The notes: generated by a model not told the origin, from the letters alone. A DNA stretch of 32,000 nucleotides from Copranaerobaculum intestinale (GCF_009831105.1 NZ_WUUQ01000001.1:420001-452000), one strand, 5' to 3'. Positions 1,161-12,544 are shown, counted from the stretch's first letter. Numbers and translations: made by a program.

Positions 1161-1469
1161 GTGCCGAAAATTATGAAGTGTCCGTCCTGCGGATCAGATA
1201 TCAAAGCTTCTTTTGTCAAAGGCGCAGTCCATCTTCGCTGTAAAAACTGTGAAGCAAAGTATGAAATGACCCAGAGCAGTGTGAAAAAGCATATGGCTGT
1301 ACCGCTGCTTTCGGTAGGAATCAGCGTTGCTCTCAGCATGCAGATCTTTCCCCGTGATAATATCGATTTGAAATTTTTGTTTATCGTTGGTCTGTCCTTT
1401 CTGCTGGCGATGATCGCGGATTGTCTGCTGGTACGGTTTGGTATCATCACATATGAAAAAGAGAATTGA
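1161..1469 (+). CDS. Small zinc-ribbon membrane protein (hypothetical)
   Basis: GTG start 9 nt after AGGAG. The N-terminus has two CxxC pairs (CPSC ... CKNC). Two hydrophobic helices follow (AVPLLSVGISVALSM; FLFIVGLSFLLAMIADCLLV). The stop lies 9 nt before the next ATG. Confidence 0.6.
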   Translation: MPKIMKCPSCGSDIKASFVKGAVHLRCKNCEAKYEMTQSSVKKHMAVPLLSVGISVALSMQIFPRDNIDLKFLFIVGLSFLLAMIADCLLVRFGIITYEKEN

Positions 1470-1477
1470 GGTGCTTT

Positions 1478-3010
1478 ATGGAAAATTCAGGAATTGATAA
1501 CTATACATGGAAAGAGATTCTGACGATCTTCTTTAAACAGCGTTCTCGTCATTATGAAAAAGAGGGACGCTATTTTATCTCAAGAGTAACTTATAAAGAT
1601 ATCGGAAAACGTTTTGTCAGTGTACTGATCGACTGTTCCGTGATGTTTTTTCCGATCTATCTGTGGCTGATTGTCGTTTTATTGATTTTTTCTGATATTC
1701 TTCCGGCTTCCCTTTTGCCGGTCGTACAGATTATCGAGCTGGGTCTGATGATTGTATCCCTGCTGTTTTTCTATCCGCTGATGGTGGTGAAAATGAACGG
1801 TGAATCACTTGGTCGATATATGTGTAATTTTAAAATTGTGCGTAGAGATGGTCATGAAGCCAGCGGTAAAGTCCTCTATCTGCGTGAGGCAATCGGTAAA
1901 GGCCTTCCGATCTTTGTTTTGAGTATACTGCTGGGAGCGCTTGGTGTGTTCATCTGGCCTGCAGTTAATCTGCTGGTTATGCTGGTCGATCCCAATCATC
2001 GCAGCCTGGCTGATTTTTTCTTGGGAACACGTCCGGTTGTCTTGCTGGAGGTTCCCGCAAATGCGAAGATCAAGCAGGTAAAGGAAGCGATCAGACAGCC
2101 GGAGTCGCTGCTGAAAAAGAGCGTCAACAAAGTGGATCTCCACATGCATACTACCTTTAGTGATGACGGCGAATTCAATGTTGAGGAAATTTTTCAGTTG
2201 GCAAAGCGCCGTGGTGTAGAAACGATATCGATCACCGATCACAATAGCGCTAAGGCAAATGTGATTGCGGAGCGAATGTCAAAATTATATGATATTCGTT
2301 ATATACCTGGAATTGAAATCGACTGTGTGTACCATGGCAGGAATATGCATATGCTGGGCTACTACATTGATTATAAGAGTGAAATGTTTGCCAAGATCGA
2401 AAATCAGAATCTGAAACGCGAACGTGATGCAAGTATGAAGCGAGTCATGAACTTTGAAGAATACACCGGTATGAAGATCGATGTCGATGCTCTGCTGGCG
2501 AACAACCGTTTCCAGACCATTGCCGGCGAACAAATTGCCGAACAGGCAATGAACAACCCAAAATATCGAAACAACCCGTTATTTGATCCATATTTGCACG
2601 GAGATCGAAGTGACATGCCTTATGTAAATTTCTATTGGGATTATTTCTCGCAAGGTAAGCCGTGCTATGTTCCGATCCAGTATCCGGATGTGAAAGTAAT
2701 TATGCAGATGATCAAGGTGACTGGAGGATTATCAGTCATTGCTCATCCTTACTGTAACTTCAAGGATGATATTTCGGTTATCGAGGATTTGTTAGAGCTT
2801 GGGGCAGATGGTGTAGAGGTATTCAGTTCTTATCATACCAATCGTCAGATGTCCGAGCTGCTTCAAATTGCCCGGCGGCATGATGCTTATATAACTGCCG
2901 GAAGTGATTTCCATGGCAAGGTAAAGCCAAAAATTCAGATCGGTGATACCGGATGTCCGATCGACGGTGAAAAAATCTTGAACCGTTTTCTGCAATTTAA
3001 AGAAAAATAA
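1478..3010 (+). CDS. RDD-family membrane domain fused to a PHP-family phosphoesterase
   Basis: I prefer the ATG at 1478 (GAGG 7 nt upstream) over the TTG at 1466. The N-terminal half is RDD-like (IGKRFVSVLIDCSVMF ... FKIVRRDGHEASG ... DPNHRSLADFFLGTRPV) with several hydrophobic helices. The C-terminal half carries PHP motifs DLHMHT, ITDHNS, GIEID, IAHPY, GSDFHG. Confidence 0.8.
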   Translation: MENSGIDNYTWKEILTIFFKQRSRHYEKEGRYFISRVTYKDIGKRFVSVLIDCSVMFFPIYLWLIVVLLIFSDILPASLLPVVQIIELGLMIVSLLFFYPLMVVKMNGESLGRYMCNFKIVRRDGHEASGKVLYLREAIGKGLPIFVLSILLGALGVFIWPAVNLLVMLVDPNHRSLADFFLGTRPVVLLEVPANAKIKQVKEAIRQPESLLKKSVNKVDLHMHTTFSDDGEFNVEEIFQLAKRRGVETISITDHNSAKANVIAERMSKLYDIRYIPGIEIDCVYHGRNMHMLGYYIDYKSEMFAKIENQNLKRERDASMKRVMNFEEYTGMKIDVDALLANNRFQTIAGEQIAEQAMNNPKYRNNPLFDPYLHGDRSDMPYVNFYWDYFSQGKPCYVPIQYPDVKVIMQMIKVTGGLSVIAHPYCNFKDDISVIEDLLELGADGVEVFSSYHTNRQMSELLQIARRHDAYITAGSDFHGKVKPKIQIGDTGCPIDGEKILNRFLQFKEK

Positions 3011-3831: not shown

Positions 3832-4347
3832 ATGGAAGAAAAAAAGCAAAGCAATCATTCTCAGAAAATGATGATGATCTTAAATTATGTATATGATATG
3901 ATCGGTATCCTCATGCCCATCACGCTGTTTATCGATTCTTTCATTTTAGTGTTTGGCAATGTGATATCCTTTACGGTGCTGGAAATCATCATGTACTGGA
4001 TGTTTCCGGTATTGTTGATATCCCTGTTGGGATTTAACTTGTTTTTGATTATTCGCTATGGCGGTACCTGCGGTAATCTGCTGCTCCATCTATCCTTGTA
4101 TCAGGAAAATCAGATACCGGCATCAATAACCGTAAAATGTCGGAGAGAGCTGTTGGAAAAGGCAGTTCCGTTTGTGGGACTGTATCTGCTGTTTCATACA
4201 TTTGGTGTACTGCTGTATTTTTTCTTCTGTATCTTGTTTATCCTCGTCGATCGTCATCATCGCTCCTGGGTGGATGTTCTGCTGCATACCCGACTTTCCG
4301 GTAAAGTCCGTATAGAACAAGAAGAGCGCATTGTGATTCAGATTTAG
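3832..4347 (+). CDS. RDD-like polytopic membrane protein (hypothetical)
   Basis: SD GAGGAG lies 6 nt before the ATG. Multiple hydrophobic helices. RDD-like blocks IRYGGTCGNLLLHLSL, CRRELLEKAVPF and the C-terminal DRHHRSWVDVLLHTRL parallel DPNHRSLADFFLGTRP and DRKGRMLHDFIGSTKV in the two other RDD proteins of this window. Confidence 0.55.
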   Translation: MEEKKQSNHSQKMMMILNYVYDMIGILMPITLFIDSFILVFGNVISFTVLEIIMYWMFPVLLISLLGFNLFLIIRYGGTCGNLLLHLSLYQENQIPASITVKCRRELLEKAVPFVGLYLLFHTFGVLLYFFFCILFILVDRHHRSWVDVLLHTRLSGKVRIEQEERIVIQI

Positions 4348-6947: not shown

Positions 6948-6992
6948 GATTATGATAATATGAAAAAGCAGAATTTATCTATCGGAGATTAT

Positions 6993-8807
6993 ATGAAAAG
7001 CAGAAAACGGGAATTTATGATTTTCACTTTCATTATACTTGCGGCAGGAGCCTTGATATGGGGCTCATTGTTTGAGTTTTCCTATCGTGTCAATGCGAAG
7101 CTGAAAAAGCACGCTTATCAAACCCTGGAGAATGCGGCAAAGGATCAAAGTGAAGCAGTAAATATGAGAATTGAAGGAAAATTTACACAGCTTAACGCGA
7201 TGGCAGATTTTCTCAGTGATAAGGCAGGCATCACACTGGAAGAAGTAAAGCAAATACTGACTTCTACGGTTAAGAAAGGGTCTTTCATTCGTATATCGGT
7301 GTCAGATATCGACGGGAAAAGCTATAGTACAGATAATCATGAGATTGATGCGAAAAGCAGAGAATATTTCCAAAATGCCATGAAAGGGGAGAACTACATC
7401 AGCGATCAGCTGGTTTCACAGGTAGACAAAGAGAAATGCATTATCCTTTCGGTTCCCGTGTACGATCCCAATGATCCTAATAAGATCAACGGTGTGCTGA
7501 ATGGTGTATTGCATGTGGAATCCATTCATCTTCAGCTCTTCGGTAAGGAAATGGATAATCATGATTATGTGATTTTGACTGATGGTAAAGGCAATGTCAT
7601 ATCCTCAGCTAATAATAAAGGACGTTTGGATCACAACAATATCCTAGTGGATATGAAGCAGTATGATGAAACACAAACAACCGTTTTGAAAAAGCAAATG
7701 AAGCTGGGGAAAAGCGGTAATTTCGCATTTGATCTGGCTGGTAAAACCCAATATCTAAATTATACGCCGCTGGGTATTCACGACTGGTATATCTTTACTC
7801 TCGTTCCAGAATCTGCGGTGCGTACACAGTTTCGTTTTATCTCTGATCAAGTGTATTTTTTGACGATTAAGCTTTTATCTATATTCCTTTTTCTGCTTGC
7901 CTTTTTCACGTTTATGGATCGCCGGCAAACAAAGCGGCTGAAAGAAGAAAAGGAGCGCCTGCGCCTGAGTGATGAACGTTATCGTATCCTGTCTGAAAAG
8001 AGCCGAGATATTTTGTTTGAAGCTGATTGTCAAAAAGGTACGATTGAAATCGGTGATAATTATATTGAGATATTTAATGATTTAAACGGTAAATTGATTC
8101 ATATGGATACGGGAAAGGCATGTATTCCCGAACCCGATTGGCAAAGGCTTCAGCAGGTTTATAAGGAAATGCTGAAAAGCGGACAGGATATTAATATGGA
8201 TTTTCAGATTCAGTCAAAAGATAAGCAATTTGTATGGATGCGCATTATTGCCAGTGTACTGTACGATGAGCAGGGACAACCAAATCGAATTATCGGTAAG
8301 CTGACAAATATCGATGAAGAAAAAAAGAAAAATAATGAATTGGTGAAAAAGGCGGAGCTGGATTCTTTGACCGGTATTTATAACCGCCGTACGGCTGAGA
8401 TTTCCATTAATCAATATTTAAGAGGAGAAGGTTCCAATGGCTGTCATGCTTTGTTGATCCTGGATGTAGATGATTTTAAAAACATTAATGATACGTGCGG
8501 TCATCTGGTCGGAGATCAAACGCTAATTGATCTGGTGGCGAATGTCAGAAGCAATATTCGGAAAAGTGATATTCTCGGACGGATCGGCGGTGACGAATTT
8601 GTTGTATTTTTGAAAGATACCGCAAATGATGAGCAGATTTCATCTATTTCAAGAAAAATTTCACAGGCAATACTTAACACGCAAGATATGCCGATTACTA
8701 TAAGTGTCGGAGCTGCCCGCTACCCTGGTGACGGCATTGATTTTCAACAGCTCTATGGTCATGCGGATTCTGCAATGTATCATGAAAAGCGCCGGAATCG
8801 CCGCTGA
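6993..8807 (+). CDS. Diguanylate cyclase with extracytoplasmic Cache-like sensor, PAS and GGDEF domains
   Basis: GGDEF motif in RIGGDEFVVF. An RxxD I-site, RKSD, lies 5 residues upstream. Architecture: N-terminal TM helix, periplasmic-type domain, second TM (FLTIKLLSIFLFLLAFFTF), then a PAS-like segment. I prefer the ATG at 6993 (GGAG SD) because the ATG at 6960 is only about 6 nt from the predicted TSS. 6960 remains an alternative start. Confidence 0.9.
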   Translation: MKSRKREFMIFTFIILAAGALIWGSLFEFSYRVNAKLKKHAYQTLENAAKDQSEAVNMRIEGKFTQLNAMADFLSDKAGITLEEVKQILTSTVKKGSFIRISVSDIDGKSYSTDNHEIDAKSREYFQNAMKGENYISDQLVSQVDKEKCIILSVPVYDPNDPNKINGVLNGVLHVESIHLQLFGKEMDNHDYVILTDGKGNVISSANNKGRLDHNNILVDMKQYDETQTTVLKKQMKLGKSGNFAFDLAGKTQYLNYTPLGIHDWYIFTLVPESAVRTQFRFISDQVYFLTIKLLSIFLFLLAFFTFMDRRQTKRLKEEKERLRLSDERYRILSEKSRDILFEADCQKGTIEIGDNYIEIFNDLNGKLIHMDTGKACIPEPDWQRLQQVYKEMLKSGQDINMDFQIQSKDKQFVWMRIIASVLYDEQGQPNRIIGKLTNIDEEKKKNNELVKKAELDSLTGIYNRRTAEISINQYLRGEGSNGCHALLILDVDDFKNINDTCGHLVGDQTLIDLVANVRSNIRKSDILGRIGGDEFVVFLKDTANDEQISSISRKISQAILNTQDMPITISVGAARYPGDGIDFQQLYGHADSAMYHEKRRNRR

Positions 8808-8820
8808 TACAATAATGTGC

Positions 8821-8866
8821 AAACAAAATAAAACTATCGGTTTGATCCGATAGTTTTATTTTGTTT
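8821..8866. terminator. Bidirectional terminator (perfect 20-bp palindrome arms)
   Basis: AAACAAAATAAAACTATCGG, loop tttgat, CCGATAGTTTTATTTTGTTT. It lies between the convergent DGC and MutS-like genes. Confidence 0.8.
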
Positions 8867-8899: not shown

Positions 8900-10474
8900 T
8901 TAAGATGCGATGGTTTCCCATTCGCCTTGCTGTTCAAAATGATTCAAGCGTGATTTTGCCTGTTCGATCAAATCGCTTTGATAGCCCAGAATCTTTAACA
9001 GTGAGATCGCGTTGCGGGTTGTGGTAGGGCCGCGGTGAATTTTGTAATCAAACACCATTTTATCTTTTTCCATTTTTTCCGTAAAATGATAATTTTGATA
9101 ATCCTTTTCCAAAATATGCGTCAGTTCGATATCATGGGTTGCCCCCAGACAAATACAGTTGGACTGGGCAAACTGATGCAAAATGGCTGAGCTGGCAGCG
9201 ATCCGCTCCAGTGTGTTAGTACCGCGCAGGATCTCATCGACCATGCATAAGGCAGGGATATCATCATGGCAAAGCTCCAGCAGCGAATGAAGCGATTTCA
9301 CTTCCGCCACAAAGGTGCTTTCATTTTGAAACAGATCGTCGTGAAGCGTCATAGAGGTTGCGATCTTGAAATAGGAAGCGCGATATTGCTTTGCAAATGC
9401 AAAATGGAAGGATTGAGCGAAAATCGCATTGATGGCAATCATTTTGAGATAGGTAGATTTTCCCGTCGCATTGGAGCCGGTAATCAAACGATTTTCGTGT
9501 ATATCCACATGATTGGAAACAGGATTTTCAAGCAATGGATGGATCATATCTGTCGCGTCGATGAAGCGTCCTTCCTCTGATAGCAATACATTGTCAGATG
9601 CATGTGCATAATCTTGATAGGAAGCGGCAGCGATACAGGCATCAAGCGTACCAATCGTTTGAAAGATATCACGAACGATATCCTGTCGTTCATAGATTGC
9701 TTTAGCGTATTTATCATAGTAAATGGATTCACTTTGAAACAGGAAATTCAGGGTAGAGGAGCTCTTTTCAAAATAATCCAGAGAACGTCTGGCATGTACA
9801 TCGTGCATGGCTTCGCTGAGTTCTTCCAGATGCTTCTTTAATCCGGGTAATCCGGTGAAAGGTTCAGCGGCCAGCTGATGCACTGTTTCAATATGAGAAA
9901 GCATATAAACGAGGGAGTCCATCTCATTCTCGAGCTGTTTATGAAGAATGAAGGATCGAAAAATATTGTAGATCAACAGCACGCCGGCAATGACCGCAAA
10001 TGGCATCGGCATTAAAAATGCGAAAGCGGCAGATATAAACATACTGTAAACAAGTGCGCGAGAGCGGTACTGACGGGAAGAATTACTGTAATCATGCTGG
10101 AACGGCTGTTCTAAATCATCCTCATAGCGTTTGCCGGCTCCATATAAATGATGAATGACTGCATCACGCTCTTCGACTTCGTTACGAGCCCAGTTCATCA
10201 CAGTCAGCCGATGATGCAGGGATTCATTGGATAAGCAAGGCTGTCTGAGCATACCGTACAGCATGAAATCACCTGCTCCGCTGTAAGTCGCGTTCATATT
10301 TCGATAGATTGTATCCAGATCCAGGTCATTCCAAGTAATGTCATCCAGCGTATGCAGGCTTGTATCCAGGAAGGAACGATAATATTTGTGTACAGTTGAT
10401 ATTTCATCATCCTTGATTGGGAAGAGCGGTTCCATTCCAAATCTTCCATCCAGAAACAGAAATTTATTTTTCAT
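8900..10474 (-). CDS. MutS-related ABC ATPase (domain III/V only), membrane-anchored, paralog B
   Basis: Motifs GSNATGKSTYLKMIAIN (Walker A), MVDEILRGTNT (Walker B region), GATHDIELT. N-terminal DDITWNDLDLD followed by a domain-III-like SGAGDFMLYGMLRQP. Central hydrophobic stretch ALVYSMFISAAFAFLMPMPFAVIAGVLLIYNIF. SD GGGAGGTGA. Confidence 0.85.
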   Translation of the reverse strand: MKNKFLFLDGRFGMEPLFPIKDDEISTVHKYYRSFLDTSLHTLDDITWNDLDLDTIYRNMNATYSGAGDFMLYGMLRQPCLSNESLHHRLTVMNWARNEVEERDAVIHHLYGAGKRYEDDLEQPFQHDYSNSSRQYRSRALVYSMFISAAFAFLMPMPFAVIAGVLLIYNIFRSFILHKQLENEMDSLVYMLSHIETVHQLAAEPFTGLPGLKKHLEELSEAMHDVHARRSLDYFEKSSSTLNFLFQSESIYYDKYAKAIYERQDIVRDIFQTIGTLDACIAAASYQDYAHASDNVLLSEEGRFIDATDMIHPLLENPVSNHVDIHENRLITGSNATGKSTYLKMIAINAIFAQSFHFAFAKQYRASYFKIATSMTLHDDLFQNESTFVAEVKSLHSLLELCHDDIPALCMVDEILRGTNTLERIAASSAILHQFAQSNCICLGATHDIELTHILEKDYQNYHFTEKMEKDKMVFDYKIHRGPTTTRNAISLLKILGYQSDLIEQAKSRLNHFEQQGEWETIAS

Positions 10475-12140
10475 ATCCGCTCACCTCCCGCAATTTTTTC
10501 CAAACCCCGTTGGTTTCATAGTATTGAAGCTGTTCTTCTGCTTGCTTGACAACATTGCGGTCAAAATCCAGTCGGGTAAGCAATGCCAGCGCATTACGGC
10601 TGTGTGACGCTCCTTCATGGATATGATAATCAAACTGCATCTGATCATCCTGCAGAGATTCAGTAAAATGACGGTTCTGATAGTGATTAGAAAGGATACG
10701 GGTCAGTTCCAGATCGTGGGTAGCTGCCAGACATAACGCTTGGGAACGGCTCAGTGCCATCAGTACTTCACTCGCCGCCGCAATTCGCTCACCGGTGTTA
10801 GTACCGCGCAGAATTTCATCGATCATGCATAGAATCGGAATTTCATCGTGTATATGATCGAGGATACGCTTGATTGATTTGATTTCCGCAACGAAATAGC
10901 TGTCATTCGTTTCCAGAGAATCCCGCAGTGACATGGATGTATAAATCTGGAAGATGCACGCGCGGTAGGAAGCTGCCAAGGCAAAACCGAAGCTTTGGGC
11001 AAAGATGGTATTGATTGCGATCATTTTCAGGTAAGTTGATTTTCCGGACGCGTTAGAGCCGGATATCAAGATATTCTGATGCAGGTCGACATCATTGGGA
11101 ACGGGATTCTCAAGCAGTGGATGAATCATTGTTTTTGCTTCCAGAATATGATCGCTGACAAATTCTGCCGTACAGGTTTTCGTCAGTGTTTGATAATAGG
11201 AAGCCGTGCTGATCAAAGCATCCATCTCACCGATGATCGTAACGGCGGTTTCGATGTTTTTACGATGCTGAAACAGATGATCGCGAAGCCGATAATACGT
11301 AAATGCTTCACCAAGCAGTGCATTGCCGATAATCAGCAGAAAGAAACCGTCTCCACTGTGGATATCAGGAAATAAGGAACGCTTGATACTTCCTAATGCT
11401 TTTGCGGTTTTCTTCAGTGGGTACTGATCCTGGATAAACGGGGGGAGCGATGCTTTAGAAATTGCCTGCAAAGAGCGGGCATAGCTGTATAGGTATAACG
11501 CAGAGTCAAAATCATCTGCCATATTTTTACGTATGGAATTGGCCAGAAAGCAGTTAATGAAGCCGATTAAAAATGCGTAGGTCAGTATCGGCCAGTAAAA
11601 GATTCCGGCAATCAGAAAGAATACCGGTAGACCGGCTAGGATGTAGACCAGCGGCTGTGAAATCATTTTGACGTTTTTAGGCTTGGTATACAGTGCATCA
11701 ATCGCAATTTCACCTCGGCTGTCAGTCTTAATCAGGGCGCTGCGAATCAGATTTCTTCCGGCTTCATCATTCATTGCCCATTCCAGCATCGCATGGCGTT
11801 GCGTGATGGCAGCAGGATCGTACAGGGGATTTCTAAGCATATGGTAGAGCGCCTGATCACCAGCCGCACTTAAGCATTGATTCATCTGCTGATAAACAAT
11901 ATCCATATCCAGATCATTCCAGGTGATATCGTCTACTTGGAAGGGTTCATAATGTTCCTGCGTCTGTTCTTTTATAAAGGAAAGCTCGTCTTTACTGAAA
12001 GAACCTGAGGAGGAATGTTCGCCCCAATTTTGAAAAACGGCGGTTTGCTGCTGATGCTTGCTCCAGAAATGATAGATGGTATAGATAACCTCTATACCAA
12101 CCAAAACTCCTAAAGTTACGACTACGGCTGTAAAATCCAT
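10464..12140 (-). CDS. MutS-related ABC ATPase (domain III/V only), membrane-anchored, paralog A
   Basis: I prefer the ATG at 12140 (SD GGAAGGTGA) over 12221. N-terminal helix MDFTAVVVTLGVLVGIEVIYTIYHFW. Motifs DDITWNDLDMD, GSNASGKSTYLKMIAIN, MIDEILRGTNT, AATHDLELT. Central hydrophobic stretch PLVYILAGLPVFFLIAGIFYWPILTYAFLIGFINCFL. Confidence 0.85.
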   Translation of the reverse strand: MDFTAVVVTLGVLVGIEVIYTIYHFWSKHQQQTAVFQNWGEHSSSGSFSKDELSFIKEQTQEHYEPFQVDDITWNDLDMDIVYQQMNQCLSAAGDQALYHMLRNPLYDPAAITQRHAMLEWAMNDEAGRNLIRSALIKTDSRGEIAIDALYTKPKNVKMISQPLVYILAGLPVFFLIAGIFYWPILTYAFLIGFINCFLANSIRKNMADDFDSALYLYSYARSLQAISKASLPPFIQDQYPLKKTAKALGSIKRSLFPDIHSGDGFFLLIIGNALLGEAFTYYRLRDHLFQHRKNIETAVTIIGEMDALISTASYYQTLTKTCTAEFVSDHILEAKTMIHPLLENPVPNDVDLHQNILISGSNASGKSTYLKMIAINTIFAQSFGFALAASYRACIFQIYTSMSLRDSLETNDSYFVAEIKSIKRILDHIHDEIPILCMIDEILRGTNTGERIAAASEVLMALSRSQALCLAATHDLELTRILSNHYQNRHFTESLQDDQMQFDYHIHEGASHSRNALALLTRLDFDRNVVKQAEEQLQYYETNGVWKKLREVSGYEK

Positions 12141-12162
12141 AAGATCACCTTCCAATGATAAT

Positions 12163-12191
12163 AGAATAAGGAAATATCTGCGCTCTGTCAA
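12163..12191 (-). promoter_or_regulatory. Candidate sigma-A promoter of the MutS-like pair
   Basis: On the minus strand: TTGACA (12191-12186), 17 nt spacer, TATTCT (12168-12163). This is about 20 nt upstream of the SD and ATG at 12140. Confidence 0.5.
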
Positions 12192-12280
12192 CAAGCACCC
12201 TGATAAGGAACTGCTTTTCAATGCATAAACCGTTTTTTTCTGGGTATATTTTCTACATAGCAGATTGCTGGAGGTGTGTT

Positions 12281-12544
12281 ATGCGTTGCATGCGAAAATA
12301 TCAGATAAAGTCTCATCCCTGGCTATGCCGACTGTTGACCCTGGCGGCACTGATAATGCTTGGGCTTACCTGCTATTCGGGATATCAGAAAGCCTACAAA
12401 GATATGATATATTTGGGAATCCTCACCGGCATGCTGTTTCTTTCCGCTTGGATTTGTCATCATCGTAATACGGAAGCTTATAGATTGCAGGATATTCATC
12501 TCTATGATTTGTCAATGGAACTGCGCCGGCAGAAATCAAAATAA
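12281..12544 (+). CDS. Small membrane protein (hypothetical)
   Basis: The ATG at 12281 is preceded by GGAGG. Two hydrophobic helices (LCRLLTLAALIMLGLTCY; LGILTGMLFLSAWICH). No recognisable family. Confidence 0.45.
   Translation: MRCMRKYQIKSHPWLCRLLTLAALIMLGLTCYSGYQKAYKDMIYLGILTGMLFLSAWICHHRNTEAYRLQDIHLYDLSMELRRQKSK

Follow-up and report, generated by a model that had tools for sequence, protein, structure and literature searches.

A tandem pair of membrane-anchored MutS-family ATPases, a putative heterodimer, within a large Bacillota family

In a 32,000-nucleotide (nt) stretch of Copranaerobaculum intestinale DNA (NZ_WUUQ01000001.1:420001-452000; hereafter the window, with positions counted from its first letter), two overlapping genes on the minus strand, here called A and B, encode diverged copies of a MutS-family ATP-binding cassette (ABC) ATPase cut down to domain III and domain V. 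Domain III of each protein is interrupted by a predicted transmembrane (TM) hairpin, and A carries an additional TM helix at its N terminus. This architecture defines a large, uniformly built family of the Bacillota that is normally single-copy; our analysis indicates that a single tandem duplication in an Erysipelotrichaceae-like lineage gave rise to the A/B pair, which has been kept together and translationally coupled since then. The two proteins are 39% identical over 494 amino acids (aa) (BLASTP, E = 6e-112). The order of parts is TM1, domain III, TM hairpin, domain III, and domain V ATPase with a C-terminal helix-turn-helix in A, and domain III, TM hairpin, domain III, and domain V ATPase in B. 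The genes and the parts of their products, with helices taken from hydropathy and from AlphaFold2 (AF2) models, are as follows.

10464..12140, minus strand: gene A, the upstream paralog, a 558-aa membrane-anchored MutS3-type ATPase (ATG at 12140-12138, TAA at 10466-10464)
12075..12131, minus strand: TM1, residues 4-22 of A, predicted N-terminal transmembrane helix (hydropathy 2.13; AF2 helix 3-37)
11523..11663, minus strand: residues 160-206 of A, predicted two-helix TM hairpin inserted in the middle of domain III and carrying Asn196
10506..11153, minus strand: residues 330-545 of A, MutS domain V ABC ATPase and C-terminal helix-turn-helix
8900..10474, minus strand: gene B, the 524-aa paralog without TM1 (ATG at 10474-10472)
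9941..10081, minus strand: residues 132-178 of B, predicted TM hairpin (hydropathy, AF2)
8927..9577, minus strand: residues 300-516 of B, MutS domain V ABC ATPase with all catalytic motifs intact

An earlier reading of this DNA, made from the sequence only, had described both products as MutS-type ATPases devoid of mismatch-binding domains and of an Smr extension, and the domain searches agree with it on each point. Pfam detected MutS_V (PF00488) above cut-off in A (1e-27) and in B (5e-29), and MutS_III (PF05192) above its cut-off of 34.1 bits in A (35.6 bits, 1.5e-8) and below it in B (17.6 bits, 0.005); it gave no match to MutS_I (PF01624), MutS_II (PF05188), MutS_IV (PF05190), Smr, or KOW in either protein. 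Only 69 residues precede domain III in A and 43 in B, and both chains end about 15 to 20 residues past the helix-turn-helix. The motif DDITWNDLD, which begins at residue 70 of A and residue 44 of B, had been singled out as a shared start; it is indeed present in both proteins but is not special to them, since its alignment to E. coli MutS from residue 267 identifies it as the canonical start of MutS domain III. The ATPase of A contains Walker A (GSNASGKST), Q-loop, signature (SYFVAE), Walker B (MIDEILRGTNT), and H-loop (ATHD) motifs, all five of which are invariant in alignments of both clades, and the earlier hand count of 38 identical residues among the 46 of the block IHPLLENPV...FAQSF was reproduced.

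The fold is that of MutS. AF2 models built with family alignments reached a mean predicted local distance difference test (pLDDT) score of 90.6 and a predicted template modeling (pTM) score of 0.90 for A, and 90.0 and 0.89, respectively, for B. Foldseek searches of the PDB returned only MutS, MSH2, MSH3, and MSH6 chains, at E values of 1e-18 to 1e-15 over 480 to 600 alignment columns. The profile of A aligned with that of E. coli MutS at hhalign probabilities of 99.3 to 99.8, residues 69-150 of A mapping to 267-353 of MutS, residues 262-320 to 495-567, and the ATPase to 575-800. Because residues 415-494 of E. coli MutS, which form the lever end and most of the clamp, lie opposite gaps in this alignment, and because MutS_IV has no match, the clamp is missing and the hairpin stands in the middle of the core domain. 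The NCBIfam models for MutS1, MutS2, and KamC cover only the C-terminal halves of A and B, with scores far under their cut-offs. Within that region the ATPase is nearer to MutS1 than to MutS2, both by NCBIfam (1e-38 versus 1e-28) and among PDB sequence matches (1e-33 versus 2e-19). Domain content and curated cut-offs rule out the identification of either protein as a classical MutS1, MutS2, or KamC.

Hydropathy and AF2 also bear out the earlier description of a central hydrophobic stretch in both proteins and an extra N-terminal helix in the upstream one. By hydropathy, hydrophobic segments cover residues 4-22 and 160-203 of A and residues 141-178 of B; TM1 is found in the A clade and in single-copy relatives and is absent from B. 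The hairpin of A is modeled as helices 162-179 and 185-206, the second of which runs into helix 208-228, and in B the second hairpin helix is modeled as a single unbroken helix of 47 residues (156-202). The proline/glycine turn of the hairpin is conserved in the family, and Asn196 of A, in TM3, is kept in the A clade and in single-copy proteins and lost in the B clade. Lysine and arginine residues flank the cytoplasmic ends of the helices, which fits an N terminus outside and an ATPase inside. The hydropathy, the confidently modeled helices, and these positive-inside residues together support the membrane anchoring of A and B with a cytoplasmic ATPase. The hairpins would occupy the position of the MutS lever tips, a placement inferred from secondary structure and from a profile alignment that is weak there.

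The sequence-only reading had treated this module as one of a kind. It proved instead to be a lineage-specific duplication in a very large family of the Bacillota whose members are single-copy elsewhere. A search with B found more than 6,600 relatives, among which PF00488 is always, and PF05192 in part of the matches, annotated in precomputed Pfam data. Proteins of the B type (about 520 aa, without the first helix) come only from Erysipelotrichaceae-like assemblies. The longer form, which measures about 556 to 570 aa and includes that helix, is widespread in Clostridia and goes by the NCBI names "MutS-related protein" and "MutS." The N-terminal 330 aa of A, which exclude the ATPase, retrieved 1,171 cluster representatives at 50% identity, 285 of them at E values of 1e-10 or lower and almost all 520 to 610 aa long. 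A GTDB scan with a single protein as the query gave no match; an alignment-based scan succeeded and yielded 80 loci from Lachnospiraceae, Clostridium, Peptostreptococcaceae, Ruminiclostridium, and Christensenella. All 80 are single-copy, with no second family member within 8 kb, and 78 show both the N-terminal hydrophobic helix and the central hairpin.

In staphylococci, the family member is a core chromosomal gene located between abc-f and tsaD, and the gene is core and syntenic in Lachnospiraceae as well; members also occur on staphylococcal and clostridial plasmids. The chromosomal ortholog of S. epidermidis has the same layout of TM1 and hairpin as A. The member in S. aureus NCTC 8325 is SAOUHSC_02276, annotated as a "MutS domain V protein" (WP_000106330), which aligns to residues 52-538 of A at 31% identity over 87% of its own length. 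This gene carries a premature stop in some natural isolates of S. aureus (PMC8440226), which indicates that the family member is nonessential. The family is probably the MutS3 subfamily defined by Lin, Nei, and Ma in 2007 (PMC2190696), and it has already been catalogued by sequence. Its membrane anchor, however, seems not to have been described so far in the searchable literature: we found neither a functional study of the family nor any account of such an anchor, in line with the earlier statement that this architecture had been assigned no function.

Several findings suggest that the two window proteins belong together. A neighbor-joining tree places the A and B clades next to each other as sister groups, apart from the single-copy proteins of Clostridia. 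In seven of seven contexts with a B-type gene, an A-type gene lies directly upstream, with junctions in the relatives ranging from overlaps of 1 to 14 nt to direct abutment, and B without A was not seen in any of the seven. This order is retained as the identity of B to the window copy falls from 99% to 43% and across at least four different flanks (mnmG; threonine and aspartate-semialdehyde genes; butyrate-pathway genes; and sugar-utilization genes, the last with an RpiR-type HTH_6/SIS regulator and a phosphotransferase system), and it upholds the description of the pair as a self-contained unit. MutS proteins dimerize through domain V. Given the predicted translational coupling, the strict coinheritance, and the one-sided losses in B of TM1 and of the TM3 asparagine, an A/B heterodimer is the most economical reading, and we hold it to be somewhat more probable than its opposite. 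The membrane-tethered heterodimer proposed earlier thus stands with respect to the tether; its heterodimeric part is plausible in view of the sister clades, the retained motifs, and the losses in B, and is only inferred.

Alternatively, the paralogs could form separate homodimers with subspecialized roles and be adjacent only through coexpression. In its favor, relatives with a single copy can only function as homodimers, A and B each retain a complete ATPase and C-terminal dimerization regions, and the differences fixed between the clades number just five positions, all of them conservative. We nevertheless consider this arrangement unlikely: the overlapping or abutting A-then-B order, unbroken down to 43% identity, argues for equimolar coassembly, B has lost TM1 and the TM3 asparagine in the usual pattern of a dependent subunit, and no solitary B was seen.

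The layout and predicted expression signals of the pair are summarized by three further features.

10464..10489, minus strand: A/B junction, an 11-nt overlap of the A stop with the B start, with a Shine-Dalgarno sequence inside the end of A
12163..12191, minus strand: sigma-70-like promoter candidate TTGACA-17-TATTCT upstream of gene A, 10 of 12 matches
8821..8840 / 8847..8866, no strand assigned: perfect 20-bp inverted repeat with a 6-nt loop and T-rich arms (dG of -25.4 kcal/mol, z = -5.3)

The 11-nt overlap of two same-strand genes was seen as originally described, and the Shine-Dalgarno sequence GGGAGGTGA lies 6 nt upstream of the ATG of gene B, an arrangement that predicts translational coupling. 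The claim that the pair has its own promoter held only in part. TTGACA-17-TATTCT is the top-scoring promoter-like site in the region, but the region contains nine such sites compared with 9.6 expected from shuffled sequence, and since these sites are no commoner here than in shuffles, the promoter remains a candidate. The perfect palindrome reported as a terminator is present as the repeat at 8821-8866; placed between convergent genes, with T-rich arms that could terminate either strand, it is a putative bidirectional intrinsic terminator that can serve both gene B and the converging gene on the other side. That gene (6960-8807, plus strand), with which the hairpin is shared, encodes a dCache-PAS-GGDEF diguanylate cyclase with two membrane segments. 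The start of gene A was chosen between two candidates. A mechanical list of open reading frames (ORFs) carries the gene up to a TTG at 12221, and the frame is open for these 27 additional codons (12141-12221, minus strand), which would overlap the predicted promoter. We adopted the 558-aa form because gene callers on near-identical and related contigs give 558 aa; the shorter ATG also has its own ribosome-binding site, GGAAGGTGA.

The immediate setting of the pair consists of metG, the GGDEF protein gene, and mnmG, and the window further contains an ABC exporter fragment, RDD/PHP proteins, a metal-dependent repressor, an ArsC/Spx-like protein, and sugar-utilization genes. The G+C content of the module (0.44) is the same as that of the neighboring housekeeping genes metG and mnmG, and this similarity, together with the flanks themselves, points to a housekeeping role. 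Two RDD-family membrane proteins are encoded at 1466-3010 and 3832-4347 (both plus strand), the first of which also carries a fused PHP phosphoesterase domain; in a related contig (L089), too, an RDD gene is near metG. Between gene A and mnmG, and divergent from A, is an ORF of 87 aa (12281-12544, plus strand) with two hydrophobic segments and no Pfam match, which gene callers also report on the near-identical contigs L001 and L002; at its position in another related contig (L101) is an ORF that weakly matches YtpI. As a partner of the pair this ORF was rejected, since it is not conserved in the other contexts.

Among the 80 loci, one recurring partner was found: RNase HI is encoded directly downstream of the family gene, on the same strand, in 40 (Lachnospiraceae loci in the series L012 to L082; for example, L013, 5241-5756, and L021, 9643-12899). 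The TM-MutS proteins linked in this way have a median mutual identity of 42%, and 14 gene families occur on their other flank. These neighborhoods in Lachnospiraceae also hold genes for PNP, cytidine deaminase, amidohydrolase, NrdD, and dUTPase, and in four of the 80 loci (L021, L026, L056, and L057) a canonical mutS (MutS1) of about 900 aa lies 0.5 to 3 kb downstream. The RNase HI linkage and these neighbors provide moderate, guilt-by-association evidence for a role on nucleic acid. Outside Lachnospiraceae, a conserved partner gene was ruled out, as the neighbors of 14 diverse loci vary.

Our composite reading is that the family member is a membrane-tethered, nonessential housekeeping ATPase that acts as an ATP-gated clamp on nucleic acid, outside mismatch repair, and that A and B do so as a heterodimer. 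As a whole we hold it tentatively, at slightly less than an even chance; its architectural part is highly probable, and its nucleic-acid part is rather doubtful. The ATPase heads would dimerize head to head, A with B here and as homodimers elsewhere, giving an A/B dimer with five membrane helices and with the ATPase and core wholly in the cytoplasm. As the second hairpin helix would continue as a long cytoplasmic core helix, the effects of ATP binding and hydrolysis should reach the membrane helices through a rigid connection, and the coupling might equally run in the other direction. The cavity between the two cores is where the MutS sliding clamp holds DNA. In the A/B dimer, this cavity would be closed on one side by the membrane in place of the clamp domains, and, most speculatively, it might serve to hold or sense nucleic acid, either DNA or an RNA:DNA hybrid, on the cytoplasmic side of the membrane.

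Several points weigh against this reading. The binding of nucleic acid is only putative, and neither MutS DNA-binding element (domain I or IV) is present. The placement of the hairpin at the lever tips draws on the weakly aligned region described above. The linkage to RNase HI is confined to Lachnospiraceae-like genomes and is not seen in the window; in Clostridium, Peptostreptococcaceae, and Staphylococcus the neighbors vary, with no such linkage. MutS-family ATPases can act on proteins, as indicated by the NCBIfam name of KamC, lysine 5,6-aminomutase reactivase. The conserved polar asparagine in TM3 suggests that the membrane part does more than anchor. Finally, a family member is encoded within an operon for bacteriocin export on one plasmid. 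On this 12.15-kb C. perfringens plasmid (NZ_CP075915.1; L084, 1-5514), a C39-peptidase ABC exporter, HlyD, the family member (559 aa), and a double-glycine, Blp-type bacteriocin of 62 aa are encoded in the same direction, and no other immunity-like ORF follows the bacteriocin. The arrangement offers a possible handle on the function of the family.

The main rival explanation builds on these last two points. It holds that the proteins are membrane-directed ABC mechanotransducers in which the MutS core is only a rigid coupling arm and the substrate, located within or on the membrane, is a lipid, a membrane-active peptide, or another membrane protein that acts as a partner. One example would be bacteriocin or antimicrobial-peptide immunity or tolerance of the kind provided by MacB/FtsX-type systems. 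Consistent with this are the position of the C. perfringens member between the C39-ABC and HlyD genes and the bacteriocin gene in the absence of another immunity-like ORF, the second, 60%-identical copies on S. epidermidis plasmids, one of which is near DUF1430 and ABC genes, a copy in C. estertheticum that follows a MerR regulator, the conserved TM3 asparagine and proline/glycine turn, and the continuation of TM3 into a long core helix. However, the dimer would have only five or six membrane helices, an outside loop of three or four residues, and no extracytoplasmic domain, and neither protein matches the membrane domains of ABC transporters. A search of the 80 chromosomal loci for HlyD, C39-ABC, and DUF1430 found no HlyD or DUF1430 and only scattered ABC genes; a general bacteriocin link was rejected on this basis, the evidence for it coming from one plasmid type, and most copies are stand-alone core chromosomal genes. 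We regard this explanation as rather improbable.

The C. estertheticum copy is on pCF002-344 (L098, 5495-8458), directly after a gene for a 322-aa MerR-family regulator on the same strand, and helix-turn-helix regulators adjoin the family gene in two other loci as well (L085 and L023). These adjoining regulators hint at stress-responsive expression in some lineages. The extra copies on plasmids of S. epidermidis and S. capitis (L085, L095, and L096), 60% identical to the chromosomal gene, adjoin genes for replication initiators, Fst toxins, and recombinases. ABC-F proteins show a split between housekeeping and plasmid-borne copies similar to that of the staphylococcal family members.

The staphylococcal chromosomal locus also bears on a reading by analogy with MutS2 (RqcU), a MutS paralog without domain I that senses collided ribosomes and acts on ribosomes. 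The anchored dimer could serve in translation quality control by recognizing ribosomes stalled at the membrane: the staphylococcal gene adjoins an ABC-F gene and the tsaD-rimI-tsaB-tsaE operon, and the ribosome-bound MutS2 entries 7qv3 and 8qpp are among the PDB sequence matches. Set against this are the lack of a KOW or Smr domain in A and B, an ATPase nearer to MutS1 than to MutS2, and staphylococcal neighbors that are not conserved elsewhere; we judge such a role very unlikely.

Defense and competence or DNA uptake had been put forward earlier as possible roles. For competence or DNA uptake, no connection with the pair was found. An anti-phage or anti-plasmid module would be in keeping with the frequency of ABC ATPases in defense systems, with weak, P-loop-only PADLOC matches to AbiLi, PtuA, and mad8, and with the presence of some copies on plasmids, but the PADLOC matches span only the Walker A region (best AbiLi E = 6.5e-4) and amount to noise, the flanks are of housekeeping type, with no effector domain, partner genes, or defense-island neighbors, and in staphylococci as in Lachnospiraceae the gene belongs to the core genome and is syntenic. 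It is also nearly absent from viral contigs except within host flanks: among 2.9 million contigs in IMG/VR, only six full-length members were found, each close to a contig end. We therefore disfavor a defense role strongly. Some database records suggest mobile carriage by name. MT880872.1, "Staphylococcus phage PhiSepi-HH3" (L087), is host chromosome and carries rex, tsaD, rimI, and ilvD, and a 256-kb S. aureus "plasmid" (NZ_CP077935.1; L097) likewise holds chromosomal genes (rex, abc-f, tsaD-rimI-tsaB-tsaE, ilvD, and ilvB); because such records contain chromosomal staphylococcal genes, the matches in them are no evidence of mobile carriage. Phage carriage was ruled out on the grounds that MT880872 carries host genes and that the IMG/VR matches are near contig ends.

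A wider interpretation, which we put forward as speculative and on balance not likely, is that MutS3-type proteins are an unrecognized membrane machine in which the MutS core serves as a lever that couples an ABC ATPase to five or six membrane helices. Were it true, such a machine might act by topological trapping, with DNA or RNA:DNA hybrids caught against the membrane, or it might perform mechanical work within the membrane, for example in bacteriocin immunity. The A/B pair of Erysipelotrichaceae would then be to bacteria what the MSH heterodimers are to eukaryotes, with an obligate asymmetry that evolved independently.

The composite reading and its rivals concern a branch of a textbook protein family that spans much of the Bacillota, including S. 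aureus, S. epidermidis, C. perfringens, and dominant gut Lachnospiraceae. An intact ATPase whose DNA-reading modules are replaced by membrane helices raises the question of what the MutS engine does without its DNA sensors. Genetically tractable hosts are available in S. aureus, with the nonessential SAOUHSC_02276, and in C. perfringens, with the 12-kb bacteriocin plasmid, and the tandem A/B pair constitutes a natural asymmetric version for structural work. If nucleic-acid tethering is correct, the family would be a new player in the chromosome-membrane or R-loop biology of Gram-positive bacteria; if the proteins act on the membrane, they would represent a new type of ABC mechanotransducer.

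Among known systems, A and B share the core and ATPase fold and all ATPase motifs with MutS1 and the eukaryotic MSH proteins, the latter of which include the paralog heterodimers MSH2-MSH6 and MSH2-MSH3. They differ in lacking the mismatch-binding, connector, and clamp domains and in their predicted embedding in the membrane, and the NCBIfam MutS models score them at 117 to 133 bits against cut-offs of 480 to 642 (NF003810: A, 133 bits; B, 122 bits; cut-off, 480). MutS2 is, like A and B, a MutS paralog without domain I and has a role other than mismatch repair; in contrast to it, A and B have no Smr or KOW domain and have predicted TM helices, and their TIGR01069 (MutS2) scores of 99.5 and 80 bits compare with a cut-off of 400. 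KamC resembles the pair as a short MutS-type ATPase (508-position model) without domains I, II, and IV that acts outside DNA repair. Its model (NF052383) scores 90 bits for A and 87 for B against a cut-off of 300, the match being limited to the region C-terminal to the hairpin (A residues 284-537), and no aminomutase genes are present in the window.

In type VII ABC systems (MacB, FtsEX, LolCDE), closure of the dimer is sent through long rigid helices to a small membrane bundle without the need for a substrate channel. By analogy, A and B might work in a comparable way; however, they have no homology to the membrane part of these systems and no periplasmic domain, and a MutS-clade ATPase is fused to the membrane helices in one polypeptide. 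Pfam matches to ABC transporter membrane domains (e.g., PF00664, PF02687, and PF12698) were subthreshold noise only (BPD_transp_1, E = 0.058).

The closest counterparts are found in the subfamilies of Lin et al. (PMC2190696). MutS3, with an ATPase near the C terminus and the core domain in some members, has the same content as A and B (a C-terminal ATPase, no domains I and II, and no Smr) and likewise occurs in S. aureus. As published, MutS3A and MutS3B are unlinked ancient paralogs and membrane segments go unmentioned, whereas the A and B copies are adjacent, overlapping, and apparently the product of a recent lineage-specific duplication. MutS4A and MutS4B are adjacent MutS-ATPase paralogs in which the stop of the first gene overlaps the start of the second, an arrangement shared with A/B and taken to suggest a heterodimer (PMC2190696). 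MutS4 is, however, a separate subfamily, from Thermoanaerobacter and Thermoplasma, whereas the A/B pair nests inside the membrane-anchored family, and the neighbor-joining tree, which covers members of that family, argues for an independent duplication, so that the likeness in gene arrangement is probably convergent. What is new here is the tandem, probably heterodimeric form of a family already known by sequence.

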